A DNA stretch of 62,719 bases from an uncultured virus (IMG/VR IMGVR_UViG_3300002835_004837) (taxonomy: Duplodnaviria > Heunggongvirae > Uroviricota > Caudoviricetes), in the IMG/VR virus record IMGVR_UViG_3300002835_004837; one strand, 5' to 3'. The notes under the pieces were generated by a model, which was not told the origin of the DNA, searched no databases, and was given only the letters and a program-made list of their open reading frames with translations. The number at the start of each line of letters is the position of its first letter. The stretch's first letter is position 1. The position numbers and the translations under genes are program-made. Below are positions 35,516 to 49,873 of this stretch, piece by piece.

Positions 35516-36104
35516 CGACCTTCTCCTTCAGTATGTGTTTGAATTTCTCCTTATCATACTTTAGAAATGGTCTATACTTTTTCACCTTGAGTGAAACCTT
35601 AGGCCAAATCACATCATTGTCATAGTATTTATCAAACTTATCAGCATATCCTGTGAAGTCATTTAGAATTGTCATCGTCTCAATTGAGATTGACTTGCGT
35701 AGAAATAGAATCACAATATCTGGATATCTATCATTACTCACATTGAAGGACACTCTCGGATCATCTTCTTTGAAGACCTTTTGTATGTCATCGGCAAAGA
35801 GATAAGACAAACTCTGTCTCCGTCTTGTATAGGCAGTATGAACATCATTTGCTTCTTCGCTTGCAAACTCTAATATGTAATGCTTGTCATCTAGAAGATT
35901 GGCAACATAGTGATCACGCAATTCTTCTGCATTGTATTCTTTGGCTAGTTTCTCATAGAACCATTTGTCATTTCGTTTTAGATATGACTCCTTGTTTGCA
36001 CGGAGTTTACCGTTCATTTGAAAGAAGTCATACTTTTGACTGGTGAAATGAGTCCTAAGTGCCAAGAATAGCAAATAGGACCCATAGCCTGTGAAATGTT
36101 TCAT
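35487..36104 (-). CDS. gp59: Helicase loader gp59
   Basis: Y..FLAL..HFT..YDFF..NGK, KR.DK.F, ISIET, KY.PFL; gp33-gp59-gp32 synteny. Confidence 0.9.
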   Translation of the reverse strand: MKHFTGYGSYLLFLALRTHFTSQKYDFFQMNGKLRANKESYLKRNDKWFYEKLAKEYNAEELRDHYVANLLDDKHYILEFASEEANDVHTAYTRRRQSLSYLFADDIQKVFKEDDPRVSFNVSNDRYPDIVILFLRKSISIETMTILNDFTGYADKFDKYYDNDVIWPKVSLKVKKYRPFLKYDKEKFKHILKEKVDENTRGKRI

Positions 36105-36937
36105 CGAGTCTGTAGGTAAGGATCAATGTTCATTACTTCATCAACGGTCTGTGCTACGAAACCTTGGGACTGCTGCTGCATTGGAGGAAGACCATATGAG
36201 TCTAACATCTTGGCTGCCATTTCTTCTTTTATCTTATTATAAGAATCCTTGATCATATCAGATGTGAGACCTCTTAGATTTGAATACGGCTCATTAGGTG
36301 TTTCTAACACCCAACCTTCATTGAGGAACTTGTTCTTACGGTATATCTGATTTGGGTGTTCAAGTTGTTTATGGTTCCACTTGAGGACCTTATTCTTGAT
36401 ACAGTCAAAGGTCTCACGGTTGATATAGAGTTTATCCTCTAGAGGATCATATGACACCTTGCAATGCTTATAATCAAAGTGTGCTAGTAGTTCCTCACGA
36501 GTCTGATACTTGGTGAGAATATACTGTGCCTGCGTTCTATGATTATTGATCACATCAACAATGTTTGTATTGTGCATATAAGACATCATTTCGGAACGTG
36601 ACCATTCCGTGTCTGCAAAAGGAACATCATCAAAGATTGAATTGATAGGTGTGATAGGATTGTAGGCGGCCGCCATTGCCTTTTTCGCCGCTTCTTCTCT
36701 TTCACTCTGCTTCTTGAAACCTTCTGTCAGGTGGTTATAAACACCAACATCATTATTCAATACAAAGATATCAATGTCCTTGAACTTAATATTCTTTAGG
36801 ACATTTGTAAAGAATCCACCAGCAATCACAACATTATTGCCATACAGACCCGATAAGAGATTTCGTGTTTTGATTAGAGATTTGATTGCTCTTTTGGATT
36901 CTTCAATATCATACTTTTCATTATCACTAAACATCAT
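36101..36937 (-). CDS. Nucleotidyltransferase-fold protein (poly(A) polymerase/CCA head-like)
   Basis: VVIAGGF...KDIDIF and later HFDY..C motifs. Confidence 0.65.
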   Translation of the reverse strand: MMFSDNEKYDIEESKRAIKSLIKTRNLLSGLYGNNVVIAGGFFTNVLKNIKFKDIDIFVLNNDVGVYNHLTEGFKKQSEREEAAKKAMAAAYNPITPINSIFDDVPFADTEWSRSEMMSYMHNTNIVDVINNHRTQAQYILTKYQTREELLAHFDYKHCKVSYDPLEDKLYINRETFDCIKNKVLKWNHKQLEHPNQIYRKNKFLNEGWVLETPNEPYSNLRGLTSDMIKDSYNKIKEEMAAKMLDSYGLPPMQQQSQGFVAQTVDEVMNIDPYLQTR

Positions 36938-37171: not shown

Positions 37172-37362
37172 ACAAACATACCAAAGATGCCAGAGAGAAG
37201 GGAGATTGTGATAGCAGAGGCGATAGTGATTTCGATTACTCCTGTTGCCCAATAACCAAGAATAGAACCTAGAAACAAACCAGCGAAGGCACAGATATAG
37301 ACATTGGTGCTTAGAGCAAAGTTAAACTCACGCATACCAGTGTATTTGTCTTTCTCACTCAT
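37168..37362 (-). CDS. Small membrane protein
   Basis: Two hydrophobic segments; SD AAGGA. Confidence 0.6.
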   Translation of the reverse strand: MSEKDKYTGMREFNFALSTNVYICAFAGLFLGSILGYWATGVIEITIASAITISLLSGIFGMFV

Positions 37363-37382
37363 AATATAATCCTTTCATGAAA

Positions 37383-37533
37383 GCGGGCCCGTTCTGTTTC
37401 GAGGTGGAGCCCATACCCAAAGGATTACGCTGCTAGAGCGAAAGCCTCATATGCATTGTTGTCGTTTGCATTTACGATTTGCTTTCGATCTCCTTACGAC
37501 CTTACTGAATCCTGTCGAACCTGAATCCGGCCC
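37383..37533 (-). ncRNA. ssrA: Two-piece tmRNA, coding piece (tag ANDNNAYEAFALAA*)
   Basis: 5' GGGCCGGATTCAGGTTCGAC at 37533; resume codon GCA at 37469, stop at 37425; 3' ...CCACCTCGAAACAGAACGGGCCC resembles alphaproteobacterial coding-piece ends (3' boundary approximate). Confidence 0.93.
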
Positions 37534-37534
37534 A

Positions 37535-37969
37535 TCATAAAGAAACATGAGGATTGGTTTTCTTCATTACAGATTTCAATCTGCCTCTCCACCATCCTAC
37601 AGGATGTTCATTCAAAGAAAACTGACCTTCAGCGTAGCCATCATTGAACCAATATCTTTGAGTTCTAATCTTACGACCATCAGTTCCCGTAGGATACTTT
37701 CTCTCTTTCTTTGAATGGTTTGCCCATCTAAGAGTGTTCGTAAGTTCTGCTCCTTTTTTGGCGCCTTCATTGATTGCGATAAAAGAACATTCATCGGAAG
37801 TTAGTAATCCCAACAAACCTTTCCAAGCAATCAAATCTTGCCAGTGTCCATGTTCCTCATATAGTTTCTTATGCGCTTCGGCATGTTCCTCTATAGTGAG
37901 TTCAACGATATTTTCTGGTTCATCATTCCCACCCATATGTTTAGGAATGATATGGTGCTTATGTTTCAT
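37535..37969 (-). CDS. HNH homing endonuclease inside the tmRNA intervening segment
   Basis: HHIIPKHMGG.D...N...LT.EEHAEAH..L HNH motif; C-terminal W.NDG...P.GW..GR DNA-binding-type motif. Confidence 0.88.
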   Translation of the reverse strand: MKHKHHIIPKHMGGNDEPENIVELTIEEHAEAHKKLYEEHGHWQDLIAWKGLLGLLTSDECSFIAINEGAKKGAELTNTLRWANHSKKERKYPTGTDGRKIRTQRYWFNDGYAEGQFSLNEHPVGWWRGRLKSVMKKTNPHVSL

Positions 37970-37975
37970 AATAAT

Positions 37976-38009
37976 CTCCTGTCGATATTACTATTTATAA
38001 ATCGACAAG
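37976..38009 (-). promoter_or_regulatory. Late promoter TATAAATA inside a hairpin that sequesters the HNH RBS
   Basis: CTTGTCGAT-ttataaatagtaat-ATCGACAGG(ag): the stem covers the start of SD AGGAG (37980-37976); promoter at 37999-37992. Confidence 0.8.
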
Positions 38010-38025
38010 TTTTCACATTTCCTTA

Positions 38026-38090
38026 TGGTGGACCGGGTGGGAACTGCCCCCACGTCCAAGAAGCCTATATTCCGTCTCTCAACGATCTAA
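38026..38090 (-). ncRNA. ssrA: Two-piece tmRNA, acceptor piece
   Basis: GAC-GTGGG-GGCAGTT-CCCAC T-arm, then CCGGTCC-A-CCA pairing with GGGCCGG and giving G3-U70 (5' boundary approximate). Confidence 0.92.
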
Positions 38091-38096
38091 GCATAT

Positions 38097-38127
38097 TATT
38101 TATAACATACGGTGAGTTTTTTGTCAA
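38097..38127 (-). promoter_or_regulatory. Overlapping sigma70 and late promoters for tmRNA
   Basis: TTGACA(38127-38122)-17 nt-TATAAA; the -10 is part of TATAAATA (38104-38097). Confidence 0.8.
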
Positions 38128-38129
38128 GA

Positions 38130-38444
38130 CTAAAGTGGTGCAAAAGTTTTATTATGTCCGTCTATTGATAGAGTTATGGAACGGACATAGCCACACTCTT
38201 TGGTTCCAGGAATGGAGAACTCACCGCTACCATGCCTGTGAAATGAAGGAGCATTACACTCACCACCATTAATACTAGCCAACGAAACATCAATCACCTT
38301 CTTCGCTTTACAGTGGATGATATGACTATCACTAACTTTCTTTTCACATGAAACATCTTCTGACGCCAATGCTGGTGTGTTACTCAGTATCAAGAGTATT
38401 TTCAAAATCCTCAATGAGAGGGACCGGGGGTTCTTTAGTTGCAT
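38130..38444 (-). CDS. Putative secreted protein (start may be a few codons downstream)
   Basis: Signal-like ILLILSNTPALA, then a mature region with 4 Cys. Confidence 0.5.
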   Translation of the reverse strand: MQLKNPRSLSLRILKILLILSNTPALASEDVSCEKKVSDSHIIHCKAKKVIDVSLASINGGECNAPSFHRHGSGEFSIPGTKECGYVRSITLSIDGHNKTFAPL

Positions 38445-38554
38445 GGCTTACTAGTCGTGTCCCGTATAATGCACTCACCGACGGTCGCCACCAGACAACC
38501 AGACAAGCCCAAACTAAGAAACACCAATGCGATTGCTAGATATACTTTCTTCAT
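38435..38554 (-). CDS. 39-aa lipoprotein (not in the ORF track)
   Basis: MKKVYLAIALVFLSLGLSGC-LVATVGECIIRDTTSKPCN; lipobox LSGC; ATGA coupling and SD GGAGG. Confidence 0.7.
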   Translation of the reverse strand: MKKVYLAIALVFLSLGLSGCLVATVGECIIRDTTSKPCN

Positions 38555-43131: not shown

Positions 43132-43276
43132 AAAACATATCCCAGTAACCTTGATCCCAATAATTGGCGAGAGCGAGACTTACACCATCGTATGGATTAT
43201 CCACTAGATTGATGCCATCTTCAAAATAAGCCTCACAACCTTCATTGTAGGCAATTTGTTTTAGTTCGTCGGTCAT
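43118..43276 (-). CDS. 52-aa Rmf/CrpP-fold-like protein (not in the ORF track)
   Basis: MTDELKQIAYNEGCEAYFEDGINLVDNPYDGVSLALANYWDQGYWDMFYDDV; ATGA-coupled to ligase. Confidence 0.6.
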   Translation of the reverse strand: MTDELKQIAYNEGCEAYFEDGINLVDNPYDGVSLALANYWDQGYWDMFYDDV

Positions 43277-44391
43277 AGGTCTCTCTTACCTTTCCAGAAA
43301 GCAACGACAACGGGGAAGCGGAGTTTGCCGTCTTCCGTTTTGTTCTGATACCGTACCGTTACGCTTGTATAACCATAATCATTATACAATAGGTCTTTAA
43401 GGAAGTCAAACTTCCCACGCACTCCTGCAAACTGTGTGGTTCCGTCTTTCAAACGGATTTCAATCCGCTTGACAGCACCTGCCCAATTGCCTTTACCTTC
43501 TTCCATAGAAACGATTTCAAATTCATCGTCCTCAAATTCCTTATGCTTGATAAGGTTCTTTGAACGCTTACCTTCATAAAGAGAGTCAGGAACACGAAGC
43601 ATTTGACCTTCATATCCTTCTTCAAGGTTCCAAGAAAGATTTTCCATAATTTGTTCTTCGCTTTCTGCAATTGTAGATTCTACAAAACGGATACATGGAG
43701 AAGGATGATCTTCCAACAAAACAGCACCTAAAAATTCTTTACGGTTCATAAAAGTCCAATTGCGATCATAATCAATCATATCATAAACATGATATTGGAT
43801 CGTCTTTCTGGACTCTTCCAGATCATCAACAGTCGGTTTAGTCTTACGAGCAAGAGAAATAATCTTCTCAAAGTCGTTTTTTAGTTCATGATTATACAGT
43901 TCTCCATCAAGAACAATTTCGGGATATTCCCGAAAGAACGGTTCGAGTGCTTCATGAATATGAGGCGCAGAAAGAATAGGCTTGCCGTTGCGTGACTGCA
44001 TACCGTCTTTTGATACGAGACAACGAACACCATCAAGTTTCGGCTGCGAGTAATAAGGGAACTTGTTATGCTTTGCAGGGTTATATTTGTCGGCAAGCAT
44101 ACACTCAACGAACTTGGCACCATTCTTAGCCCAAGTGGTAGTCTGATGATACTTGCCTTGATATTCTTTCTTTGTGATTTCAGAAAGCACTTCTAACTCA
44201 ACCTGTTCTTTCACAGTGGTTGCGTTAGCACGACCGACATTCTTGGCCTCTGGATACTTCCACCCAGAAACTACAATCTTGCCATCTTTGATGCCGGAAT
44301 GAGTGCGATACTTTGTATCGTCATACTCCATCCACCACACACGGGTGTTACCTTTAGAGTCAATCTTGTAAAGTTTCTGGGTGGCTTTCAT
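43273..44391 (-). CDS. lig: ATP-dependent DNA ligase
   Basis: QPKLDGVR, LDGELY, EGYEGQMLR, KRS.NL.K.K, LRFP. Confidence 0.93.
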   Translation of the reverse strand: MKATQKLYKIDSKGNTRVWWMEYDDTKYRTHSGIKDGKIVVSGWKYPEAKNVGRANATTVKEQVELEVLSEITKKEYQGKYHQTTTWAKNGAKFVECMLADKYNPAKHNKFPYYSQPKLDGVRCLVSKDGMQSRNGKPILSAPHIHEALEPFFREYPEIVLDGELYNHELKNDFEKIISLARKTKPTVDDLEESRKTIQYHVYDMIDYDRNWTFMNRKEFLGAVLLEDHPSPCIRFVESTIAESEEQIMENLSWNLEEGYEGQMLRVPDSLYEGKRSKNLIKHKEFEDDEFEIVSMEEGKGNWAGAVKRIEIRLKDGTTQFAGVRGKFDFLKDLLYNDYGYTSVTVRYQNKTEDGKLRFPVVVAFWKGKRDL

Positions 44392-48649: not shown

Positions 48650-49873
48650 TTAACCCTTCACATTTAGCACCTGACGGAGACGATGCACGATTTCCACAAG
48701 GTCATCCTGTGCAGCCATGACCGCACCAATGTCCTTGTAGGCAGCCGGTGACTCGTCAATTACATCAGCGTCCTTACGGCATTCGATACCCTCGGTCGCC
48801 TTGATATGATCATCCAGCGTGATTGCCTTACGAGCCGCATTGCGGGACATACGACGACCAGCACCATGAGAACACGAACAAAACGAATCCTGGTTACCAA
48901 GACCACGGACAATGAACGAACCCGTACCCATCGAACCCGGGATAATACCCAGATCGTCCTTACGGGCACGAACCGCACCCTTACGGGTCACCCACACATT
49001 CTTGCCAAAGTGGTTCTCCTTAGCAATATAGTTGTGGTGACAGTTCACAGCCTTTTCATCAGAAACAACGAAAGCCGGTAAACGCTCACGAAGAACCTTT
49101 AGCACGGCATCCATCATTAACTGACGGTTAAGAGCAGCAAACTCCTGTGCCCAAGATACAGCCTCTACATAATCATCGAACAGTTCCGTATGTTCTACAA
49201 GATAGGACAAGTCCTGATCCGGTAGATACGGCAGGATATGATAGCGTTCCATTTCACGCTTTGCAGCATCAATGAAATACTGACCAATCTTGTTACCTAC
49301 ACCACGGGACCCGGAGTGCAGCATTACCCACACATAGTCATCCTCATCAAGACACAGTTCGATAAAGTGGTTGCCCGTTCCCAGGGTACCCAGGAACTCA
49401 ACATCCTTATGGGACTTGATCTTCGGGTGCTTCTCAACGATCTTCGCATAGCGATCCGCCAGAATGTTCCATGCACCAGCAACATTCAGCGGCATATCAA
49501 GCCAGGTACCACGATCATTCTTACCACCGTTGTCGGTACGACCATGCGGAACCACGGACTCGATATGAGAACGCAGCGAGTGAAGGTTGTCCGGTAGATC
49601 GTTCGCCGTCAATGACAGACGAACAGCCATCATACCACAACCGATATCAACACCAACAGCAGCCGGCACAACTGCACCAACCGTCGGAATAACCGACCCA
49701 ACCGTTGCACCCTTGCCAAGATGGACGTCCGGCATAACAGCAACATGGCCCGCAATAAACGGGAGTGACGCAATGTTATCTAACTGGGTACGAGCATCAG
49801 CCTCGACCTCAACACCCTCGCACCACATCTTTAAACGCCCACCACGAGCGCCATCCACATACTGATATGCCAT
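48650..49873 (-). CDS. rtcB: RtcB RNA ligase
   Basis: MPDVHLGKG, VGVDIGCGM, LGTLGTGNHFIE, LHSGSRG, HHNY, RKGA, IPGSMG, SHGAGR, DESP.AYK. Confidence 0.97.
   Translation of the reverse strand: MAYQYVDGARGGRLKMWCEGVEVEADARTQLDNIASLPFIAGHVAVMPDVHLGKGATVGSVIPTVGAVVPAAVGVDIGCGMMAVRLSLTANDLPDNLHSLRSHIESVVPHGRTDNGGKNDRGTWLDMPLNVAGAWNILADRYAKIVEKHPKIKSHKDVEFLGTLGTGNHFIELCLDEDDYVWVMLHSGSRGVGNKIGQYFIDAAKREMERYHILPYLPDQDLSYLVEHTELFDDYVEAVSWAQEFAALNRQLMMDAVLKVLRERLPAFVVSDEKAVNCHHNYIAKENHFGKNVWVTRKGAVRARKDDLGIIPGSMGTGSFIVRGLGNQDSFCSCSHGAGRRMSRNAARKAITLDDHIKATEGIECRKDADVIDESPAAYKDIGAVMAAQDDLVEIVHRLRQVLNVKG

Follow-up and report, generated by a model that had tools for sequence, protein, structure and literature searches.

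Can the discarded spacer of a permuted tmRNA gene house a homing endonuclease gene? Homing endonuclease genes escape selection in three ways, by residing in introns, in inteins or between genes. We analysed a stretch of 62,719 nucleotides (the window) from the 174.5-kb (174,499-base) record of a freshwater T4-like phage, in which an HNH gene lies within a tmRNA locus on the minus strand. The earlier note had described this locus as a permuted tmRNA gene with an HNH gene in its intervening segment (IVS), and the Rfam call, the open reading frame (ORF) and our reading of the sequence bore out this description, positions included (Table 1). The most probable account is that the phage has one working tmRNA gene, a two-piece gene of the circularly permuted alpha type, in whose IVS an HNH gene of the free-standing homing-endonuclease type has settled.

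Table 1 Features of the tmRNA gene and of the HNH gene in its IVS, in window positions.
Feature	Position	Strand	Description
tmRNA promoter	38097..38127	-	TTGACA at 38127-38122, 17-nt spacer, TATAAATA at 38104-38097; read by eye and by motif match
Acceptor piece, 3' half of tRNA-like domain	38026..38090	-	T-arm, CCGGTCC, discriminator A, CCA ending at 38026
IVS	37534..38025	-	492 nt, between CCA end and G1; 70-126 nt in relatives
Closing stem, 5' strand	38013..38025	-	UAAGGAAAUGUGA; 13-bp duplex with 37538-37550, -12.6 kcal/mol; present in full-precursor fold
Hairpin	37978..38009	-	TATAAATA (37992-37999) in loop; fold z -3.0
HNH endonuclease ORF	37535..37969	-	144 aa plus TGA at 37537-37535; intact
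Closing stem, 3' strand	37538..37550	-	Also the last HNH codons (..HVSL)
Coding piece	37383..37533	-	GGGCCGG 5' acceptor strand, conserved GGUUCGACAGG region, tag frame, 3' tail; RF01849 match to 37382
Tag reading frame	37425..37469	-	ANDNNAYEAFALAA, then stop TAA

Rfam called one permuted alpha-type tmRNA gene at 37382-38131 (-) despite the 492-nt IVS. Both permuted-tmRNA covariance models, to which the earlier note had pointed as a check, gave full-length matches spanning the insertion, RF04321 with 62.5 bits (cut-off 47, E 1e-9; alignment beginning at 38087) and RF01849 with 51.4 bits (cut-off 50, E 2e-11). With scores above the cut-offs, the tmRNA match is not due to chance. The coding piece is downstream of the acceptor piece, and its GGGCCGG (from 37533) completes a 7-bp acceptor stem with G3-U70. 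The elements of the acceptor stem, discriminator A, encoded CCA and T-arm (GTGGG/GGCAGTT/CCCAC) are paired in the Rfam alignment and also when the 708-nt precursor is folded, its minimum-energy structure retaining the T-arm, the acceptor stem and the closing stem (z -4.7). The tag frame opens at an Ala resume codon and ends in ..ALAA and a stop, and ARAGORN reported the identical tag in nine of the 13 empty relatives with a tmRNA call. The sigma-70-like promoter, whose -10 region doubles as a T4 late-promoter word (TATAAATA), is kept in 6 of 8 aligned alleles; a consensus promoter scan did not call it because its rule requires the second hexamer to end in T. The record of 174,499 bases contains no other tmRNA locus, the two matches within its own genome being the halves of this one gene. 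Among 24 runs, four are RNA or possible-RNA runs; these contain 0.04 of the sampled words, and the locus is present in no RNA run.

ARAGORN found no tmRNA in the window, nor in the two occupied contigs L014 and L018; the short-IVS relatives were called. Standard annotation therefore misses the long-IVS gene. The absent call would also suit a tmRNA killed by the insertion, in which case the two halves would be a pseudogene in decay, broken up by a mobile gene, as would Rfam scores that lie 30-40 bits under those of empty alleles, RF01849 being only 1.4 bits above its cut-off. However, the score drop is an insertion penalty, with no damage to the aligned parts, the relatives have an identical tag frame, changes in the acceptor stem are compensated on both strands, the closing stem is retained though one of its strands is coding, the precursor still folds the tRNA-like domain, and the layout persists in six lineages with HNH dS >1.4. 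We thus regard a dead tmRNA gene as very improbable.

The HNH ORF fills 88% of the IVS, the rest consisting of the closing stem and the hairpin, and its stop falls 1 nt short of the mature 5' end, as had been noted from the letters, with the single base 37534 between TGA and G1 (37533). The protein matches PHROG 655 "homing endonuclease" (E 7e-13). Pfam HNH (PF01844) scores 18 bits (E 0.003) on the window protein, below the cut-off of 21.4, and matches 23 of 24 relatives at E<=0.01; a profile of these relatives matches the HNH domain of the group II intron maturase 6me0 (E 7e-5), and H5, H6, N20, H29 and H33 are invariant (24 relatives). The AF2 model (pLDDT 79.7) comprises strands at residues 3-6 and 21-24, followed by a helix at 26-40. 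Searched with this model, Foldseek returned HNH nucleases in its top rows with E>=2, none significant, and the best HNH row in VIA-align, Cas8-HNH (Z 3.7, rmsd 1.0 over 42 residues), was not significant either. Nested HNH ORFs are under purifying selection, with dN/dS of 0.11-0.25 in six pairs, figures that are rough because dS is saturated. The gene, of which the phage genome has one copy, is thus intact, as the earlier note claimed; in addition, its putative catalytic residues are invariant and it is under purifying selection.

Intron-form tmRNA genes offer a different model for such an insert. As described in the consulted part of PMC11915505, group I intron tmRNA genes exist, some with LAGLIDADG endonuclease genes, and they resemble the present locus in having a homing-type endonuclease gene inside a tmRNA gene, on a segment absent from the mature RNA. 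That the insert is likewise a self-splicing group I or group II intron with its endonuclease is nevertheless hardly credible. No family among the group I and group II intron models, including the group I fold that the earlier note had set against its own reading, matched 37300-38250 even at E<=10, and beyond the ORF the IVS has room for only the closing stem and the hairpin. In addition, the intron form self-splices in the T-loop to give a one-piece RNA (PMC11915505, as far as consulted), whereas the insert of the window has no intron fold, is bounded by the CCA end and G1, the natural RNA ends of a permuted gene, at which ordinary end processing would remove it, and has the same boundaries in short-IVS relatives.

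The earlier note had called the spacer a neutral haven. Residence in the spacer holds, but neutrality is too simple a description, since the conserved closing stem has the last codons of the ORF as one of its strands and the HNH gene has an apparent late promoter of its own and a hairpin over its ribosome-binding site. Each of the 17 distinct alleles examined has a closing stem of 9-13 bp, and the own ends of an IVS pair with a mean of -12.4 kcal/mol, versus -4.7 for 1432 cross pairs. The 3' arm of the hairpin extends over the start of the HNH Shine-Dalgarno sequence AGGAG (37976-37980). The same hairpin design occurs in L042, L046 and L048, which together with the window make four lineages (z -3.0 to -5.3); L037 and L041 have neither the hairpin nor the inner promoter. 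Over the whole genome, TATAAATA shows a strand bias of 11:1, and for 10 of 25 ATAAATA words, versus 1.5 expected, an ORF start follows within 60 nt; across the window TATAAATA is not enriched (5 found vs 4.4 expected). Operator mimicry as in I-TevI was also considered, the leader hairpin and the conserved 5' region of the coding piece having the 9-mer TCGACAGGA in common. This 9-mer is only weakly unusual (among 500 shuffles each, 11 equalled it for the window and 32 for L042) and is absent from L046 and L048, and the idea was kept as a lead only.

The prediction that related phages would carry empty ssrA alleles was confirmed. Of 31 loci having an 18-mer of the coding piece in common, 26 hold both tmRNA pieces; 24 of these 26 contigs carry empty alleles with an IVS of 70-126 nt, and the remaining two carry, like the window, the identical 492-nt IVS with the HNH gene. 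The short-IVS alleles were called by ARAGORN and by Rfam (75-105 bits). Four runs, all DNA contigs, were examined for co-occurrence of the alleles. Contigs from runs X19 and X8 have loose ends at 38024, where the sequence continues as in the empty IVSs of the L007 and L004 types, and both alleles therefore coexist in the same lake samples. In X19, depth is 3.2 in the HNH gene versus 82-125 on the tmRNA parts (contig depths, rough). One X20 contig contains a joint skipping 37537-38511 (depth 5.8, side 28), which we judged too weak for a deletion allele.

No empty allele was found on a near-identical genome; the empty relatives are different phages with flanks ~80-86% identical, and recent gain or loss is therefore undocumented. 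The mature tmRNA parts are more conserved, with 93-95% identity to relatives versus 80-86% for the flanking DNA. Compared with the nearest empty alleles, the window carries three fully compensated flips at acceptor pairs 4-6 (GGGCCGG vs GGGGGCG), to which the flank mosaicism of its own allele is confined. A role of these flips in target-site immunity was rejected, because GGGCCGG occurs in 36 short-IVS alleles, including a 73-nt-IVS allele of the window's own tmRNA lineage.

Further analysis of HNH relatives linked this nuclease family to the tmRNA gene. A permuted tmRNA is present at 29 of 80 loci of HNH relatives; the HNH gene is nested at 13 of them (six lineages including that of the window), directly upstream on the same strand at four, directly upstream and divergent at seven, and 0.8-2.2 kb from the tmRNA at five. 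The C-terminal domain type of the HNH protein follows its position relative to the tmRNA. When the window is compared with L037, 10-13 of 20 positions match within 40 nt of the IVS on either side, versus 17-20 of 20 further out; L037 has a divergent central cassette (inner tmRNA flanks plus HNH) in an otherwise near-identical backbone, with an HNH dS of 1.95 versus 0.38-0.71 for five flanking genes. This mosaic looks typical of co-conversion. The traits expected of a homing gene are seen here in part at the locus itself, as presence/absence polymorphism, and in part at the relative L037, as signs of horizontal transfer with flank co-conversion. In cultured phages, matches restricted to the HNH domain occur in 11 Synechococcus phage records, and in the three contexts inspected there was no tmRNA, the HNH relatives being free-standing endonuclease genes among unrelated genes. 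Among 185,579 bacterial species genomes, two loci matched, both on short MAG contigs and with an N-terminal match only, and ARAGORN found no tmRNA on either.

These surroundings bear on whether the nuclease moves itself. The IVS may be a general cassette slot of which HNH is one cargo among many, transferred when the conserved tmRNA halves recombine in the ordinary way rather than through its own nuclease. Indeed, unrelated ORFs are placed in the same way, encoding hydrophobic peptides of 23-24 aa (L134, L142, L128 and L141), products of 31-37 aa (L145 and L153) and 64 aa (L143), and a membrane-like protein of 84 aa (L138), and a scan for further small-peptide IVS variants yielded no contig beyond seven already known. 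Moreover, the middles of empty IVSs are hypervariable, with 42 distinct IVSs among 72 alleles, and the conserved flanks would allow homologous exchange. On the other hand, the HNH clade also sits just outside the permuted tmRNA at 11 loci with putative DNA-binding tails that vary by position, which suits a nuclease aimed at the tmRNA gene better than passive cargo, and the putative catalytic residues are invariant and the ORFs selected. We therefore consider passive carriage alone unlikely, while noting that a cassette slot and homing can both be true together.

Purifying selection across six lineages, the single copy in the phage genome and an apparently tight, late-gene style of expression would likewise fit an HNH protein domesticated by the phage, which would attack host ssrA or host DNA or act in phage DNA metabolism, homing having been lost. 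Such a role appears quite improbable, since the gene is absent from 24 of the 26 close tmRNA alleles and is the minority form in X19, and is therefore dispensable, and since in cultured Synechococcus phages its relatives are free-standing endonuclease genes of the ordinary kind. The view that an endonuclease has colonised a discarded RNA-processing spacer, favoured by every computational check that the earlier note proposed, is thus supported by the covariance models, the lack of an intron match, the empty alleles and the intact, selected HNH gene, and the case is stronger than the earlier note could know, because relatives of the HNH protein with 45-66% identity occupy the IVS of five further tmRNA lineages.

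Under this homing reading, the precursor would be transcribed from the upstream promoter, and the acceptor stem and the 13-bp closing stem would join the two halves. RNase P, presumably acting at 37534/37533, would cut before G1 (37533), the 3' end would presumably be trimmed to the CCA (38026), and the 492-nt spacer would be discarded, so that the insertion would cost the tmRNA nothing and the spacer would play the role of an intron without splicing chemistry. In the long precursor, the hairpin would partly close the ribosome-binding site of the HNH gene, and a shorter late transcript from the T4-type late promoter TATAAATA in the hairpin loop would leave this site free. During mixed infection, the enzyme would cut or nick tmRNA genes without HNH, and repair would then transfer the HNH gene to the recipient together with part of the tmRNA sequence beside it.

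The nearest known counterpart is T4 segB, a free-standing GIY-YIG homing endonuclease gene within the T4 tRNA gene cluster (PMC2330249 and PMC2988022, in the parts consulted). Like the HNH gene, segB belongs to a T4-like phage and lies in the spacer of a stable-RNA unit cut by tRNA-processing enzymes; its target is in the tRNA region of relatives without segB, and it has a late promoter and a hairpin hiding the ribosome-binding site. In contrast, segB lies between separate tRNA genes, whereas the HNH gene of the window lies within one RNA gene, between halves that must pair; SegB is a GIY-YIG enzyme with demonstrated cleavage, whereas the nuclease of the window is a predicted HNH enzyme. In the T4 scheme for I-TevI, segB and others, as given in the consulted part of PMC2988022, a late promoter yields a short transcript with a hairpin-free ribosome-binding site. 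The present locus is similar in that TATAAATA lies in or beside a hairpin occluding the Shine-Dalgarno sequence of an endonuclease gene inside an earlier transcription unit, but here we infer the scheme from the letters of four lineages.

Alpha-type permuted tmRNAs in T4-like aquatic phages, which the window resembles in this respect, are described for the OM43 phage Melnitz and pelagimyophages, together with 53 two-piece ARAGORN calls in 18,146 phage genomes (PMC9004378). The available text of that paper describes no protein gene in the spacer and contains the words "homing", "HNH" and "intervening" 0 times, and since long-IVS tmRNA genes escape ARAGORN, they would be absent from its count. 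For permuted tmRNA genes, the unusual IVS contents given in the consulted part of PMC11915505 are limited to a tRNA-Ala gene and a repetitive element. Our search of the openly accessible literature found no endonuclease gene described in the IVS of a permuted tmRNA.

More tentatively, the discarded spacer may be a general protein-coding slot and the pre-tmRNA a dual-use molecule, first a messenger and then a stable-RNA precursor, a possibility to which we give some weight but would not expect to hold. The 5' strand of the closing stem would then provide the Shine-Dalgarno sequence (UAAGGA, AAAGGAG) and the conserved leader UGAU directly before G1 the stop codon, so that stem folding and RNase P cleavage would compete with translation. 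In two nested lineages, the HNH frame extends into the mature tmRNA, by 27 nt in L046 and 15 nt in L048. There, RNase P cleavage would turn the HNH message into a non-stop mRNA, a substrate of the flanking tmRNA, and this conversion could be a built-in brake on the endonuclease.

The finding bears on both phage tmRNAs and homing genes. Because ARAGORN misses long-spacer genes, phage tmRNAs with long spacers are under-counted, and an ORF inside such a gene is entered in annotations as a stand-alone "HNH endonuclease". For experiments, the same lakes provide natural alleles of both kinds, empty and occupied, and there are six independent occupied lineages to draw on; related nucleases are found at three positions around the same target gene. 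If the homing reading is true, the spacer of a permuted tmRNA gene would be a fourth refuge for homing endonuclease genes, one inside a gene, and since the segment would be removed by the ordinary tRNA-end processing of a permuted RNA gene, no splicing chemistry would be needed.

The window comes from a virus record of 174,499 bases whose gene content, including gp59 (both domains), a gp32-type single-strand DNA-binding protein, baseplate wedge proteins and ribonucleotide reductase, is that of a T4-like myovirus. Rfam located one permuted tmRNA gene, which scored 62.5 bits with RF04321 (cut-off 47) and 51.4 bits with the alpha-type model RF01849 (cut-off 50). Both matches are full length and span the long insertion, bearing out the permuted tmRNA proposed in the earlier note. 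ARAGORN called no tmRNA over the window, and the only tmRNA matches in the 174,499-base record are this gene's two halves. Reading of the sequence confirmed every element that had been listed for the gene, namely promoter, T-arm loop, CCA end, spacer, GGGCCGG with G3-U70 and tag frame, and also that the ORF of the HNH endonuclease stops 1 nt short of the mature 5' end, one base separating its TGA from G1, the first base of the coding piece. The tmRNA is followed, some 450 nt downstream, by an ORF that matches a phage 'nucleotidyltransferase' family but no Pfam family; that it acts at the CCA end is a speculation. An RtcB-type RNA ligase and an ATP-dependent DNA ligase are also encoded in the window.

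Features of the permuted tmRNA locus (window coordinates) and ORFs in the spacers of other phage tmRNA genes (by locus)
Feature	Position or locus	Strand	Detail
Permuted tmRNA gene	38131-37382	-	Rfam
tmRNA promoter	38127-38097	-	TTGACA, 17 nt, TATAAATA; sequence reading
T-arm of acceptor piece		-	loop GGCAGTT; sequence reading
Acceptor piece end	CCA at 38026	-	CCGGTCC-A-CCA
Intervening segment (IVS)	38025-37534	-	492 nt
Hairpin 5' of HNH ATG	38009-37978		z -3.0
HNH ORF	37969-37535	-	144 aa, within IVS
Coding piece start	37533	-	GGGCCGG, forms 7-bp acceptor stem with G3-U70
Tag frame	37469-37425	-	ANDNNAYEAFALAA
Nucleotidyltransferase-like ORF	36101-36937	-	278 aa; PHROG 1614, E 5e-9
RtcB-type RNA ligase	48650-49873	-	PHROG 1075, E 1e-149
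ATP-dependent DNA ligase	43273-44391	-
Spacer ORFs	L134, L142, L128, L141		IVS 87-88 nt; 23-24-aa hydrophobic peptides
Spacer ORFs	L153, L145		IVS 120-121 nt; 31-37 aa
Spacer ORF	L143/L148		IVS 218 nt; 64 aa
Spacer ORF	L138		IVS 279 nt; 84-aa membrane-like

The HNH ORF matched PHROG 655 'homing endonuclease' (E 7e-13) and, weakly, Pfam HNH (18 bits, under the 21.4 cut-off). Alignment of the window HNH with 23 relatives showed residues 1-52 to be nearly invariant, H5, H6, N20, H29 and H33 included, and 23/24 of the aligned proteins reach E<=0.01 with Pfam HNH. Against PDB, the HNH profile matched the HNH domain of a group II intron maturase (E 7e-5), and fold searches with an AlphaFold model of the protein (pLDDT 79.7) gave no significant match. 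A permissive Rfam search (E<=10) of 37300-38250 gave, besides three chance matches, just the two tmRNA models and no intron family; the insert is accordingly read as an HNH gene and not as an intron, in keeping with the splicing-free spacer inferred in the earlier note.

Searching with 18 bases of the coding piece yielded 31 viral contigs, from which four truncated at the contig end and L026, a chance match with no upstream acceptor piece, were excluded. The IVS is 70-126 nt in 24 of the 26 two-piece contigs, so that empty spacers, lacking HNH, do exist in related phages as supposed, and an identical 492-nt IVS with HNH is present in the other two. ARAGORN called the short-IVS genes as permuted tmRNA, with a tag mostly the same as the window's, and their Rfam scores are 75-105 bits. 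The mature tmRNA parts are 93-95% identical between the window and its relatives, versus about 80-86% for flanking DNA. Judged by sequence, the empty-allele relatives are related but different phages, and no near-isogenic empty partner of the window was found among the 26 contigs. Two hairpins resembling T-arms in the 98-nt empty IVS of L009, GGTGGTTCGATTCCACC and GAGGTTCGATTCCTC, may be relics of tRNA-like sequence. ARAGORN found no tRNA gene in the whole 62.7-kb window, whereas tRNA-Arg(TCT) adjoins or lies near the tmRNA in L007, L008, L010 and L030.

Twenty DNA runs of lake or freshwater origin, dated 2016-2024, each contained at least 94% of sampled words, and fifteen of these runs are possible sources of the window DNA itself. 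The occupied allele was unchanged in the four DNA runs examined. Loose contig ends at 38024 continue into an empty IVS, of the L007 type in run X19 and of the L004 type in run X8; therefore, both allele forms occur in the same water. Contig depths, which are rough, suggest that only a small fraction of alleles carry HNH in X19 (HNH depth 3.2 versus 82-125), whereas most do in X20 (191 versus 230-308).

A scan for relatives of the HNH protein gave 188 confirmed viral stretches, and 80 loci were retained from these; nhmmer profiles of both tmRNA pieces were run on all 80 and Rfam on 67, and seven non-duplicate loci outside the Rfam set were negative with ARAGORN. A permuted tmRNA is present at 29 of the 80 loci, while the published frequency of two-piece tmRNA is 53/18,146 phage genomes (available text of PMC9004378). 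The HNH gene is nested in the IVS, in the same orientation as the tmRNA, at 13 loci (L034-L035, L036-L040, L041, L042-L044, L046, L048), which represent six lineages including the window's, L034-L035 being identical to the window. The tmRNAs of L042, L044 and L046 fall under the Rfam cut-off and were recognized by nhmmer and by reading of acceptor stems, T-arms and tags. HNH lies immediately upstream of the tmRNA on the same strand at four loci (L045, L070, L088, L108), immediately upstream and divergent at seven (L047, L050, L052, L053, L057, L059, L078) and 0.8-2.2 kb away at five. Among weaker relatives in L055-L104, whose match is confined to the N-terminal part, only L062 has a tmRNA. The C-terminal halves sort into types by position relative to the tmRNA: one is restricted to the IVS set (window, L037, L041, L042), another (WYHNP...GWIRGQGKK) is found in L046, L048 and L070, and a third is common to all divergent-upstream genes. 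The cultured-phage relatives belong to Synechococcus phages, match in the HNH domain only and are free-standing endonuclease genes of the ordinary kind; bacterial genomes hold next to none. For several HNH-adjacent tmRNAs (L060, L062, L068, L047, L050, L052, L070), the beta-type model RF01850 scored best (92-145 bits); therefore, the nuclease clade is not limited to alpha-type tmRNAs.

Pairwise dN/dS of the nested HNH genes is 0.11-0.25, with dS saturated (>1.4). Between the window and L037, a nested relative, dS is 1.95 for HNH and 0.38-0.71 for five flanking genes. The L037 tmRNA gene is a mosaic, in which 10-13/20 positions match the window in the 40 nt either side of the IVS and 17-20/20 match in the adjoining promoter, outer acceptor piece, tag and tail. 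Such a central cassette (both inner tmRNA flanks plus HNH) in a shared backbone is the pattern expected after gene conversion from a divergent donor.

The IVS ends are joined by a 9-13-bp stem beside the acceptor stem in all 17 distinct alleles, empty and occupied. The mean closing-stem energy is -12.4 kcal/mol for own end pairs (39 distinct) versus -4.7 for 1432 cross pairs, and a leader NTGAT precedes G1 in 36/39 distinct end pairs. In the window, the last HNH codons make up the 3' strand of this stem, and the leader TGA serves as the HNH stop codon. The hairpin 5' of the HNH ATG holds TATAAATA in its loop, its 3' arm covering the start of the Shine-Dalgarno; the same design with other stem sequences is found in L042, L046 and L048 (z -4.1 to -5.3), while L037 and L041 lack it and start 10-11 nt past CCA, within the closing stem. 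Genome-wide, TATAAATA has an 11:1 strand bias, and ATAAATA lies <=60 nt upstream of an ORF start in 10/25 cases versus 1.5 expected; therefore, the word acts promoter-like in this genome. This leader resembles the hairpin/late-promoter scheme described in the available text of PMC2988022 for T4 I-TevI, I-TevII, I-TevIII and segB and for Aeh1 mobE. In the window and L042, a 9-mer, TCGACAGGA, is common to the HNH leader hairpin (37970-38012 (-)) and the conserved 5' coding-piece region (37512-37520 (-)). The sharing is weakly unusual (11/500 shuffles for the window, 32/500 for L042) and absent from L046 and L048; the 9-mer may be due to chance or may mark an operator similar to the homing site.

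Unrelated ORFs occupy other phage tmRNA spacers, with the Shine-Dalgarno in the 5' strand of the closing stem and the stop within or close to the TGAT leader, as for HNH. The L134 and L142 peptide ORFs differ by six synonymous and two conservative changes, a pattern indicative of real coding. In L046 (2501-2977) and L048 (2501-2959), the nested HNH frame extends beyond G1 to a stop that ends 27 nt (L046) or 15 nt (L048) within the mature coding piece, and RNase P cleavage would strip the HNH message of its stop codon.

Permuted tmRNA in aquatic myophages (PMC9004378), tmRNA group I introns with endonuclease genes and a permuted-gene IVS containing a tRNA gene or repeat (both PMC11915505) were already known, and segB sits in the T4 tRNA cluster (PMC2330249), according to the available text of these sources. 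No description of an endonuclease gene in the IVS of a permuted tmRNA came up in our full-text literature search. We conclude that the window tmRNA is functional. We propose that its HNH gene is carried in a segment removed via RNase P and 3' trimming, because such processing is established for two-piece tmRNA in the available text of PMC11915505. HNH would be expressed mainly late, driven by its own promoter, and, as the population and comparative patterns lead us to propose, may spread through cutting of tmRNA genes without HNH.
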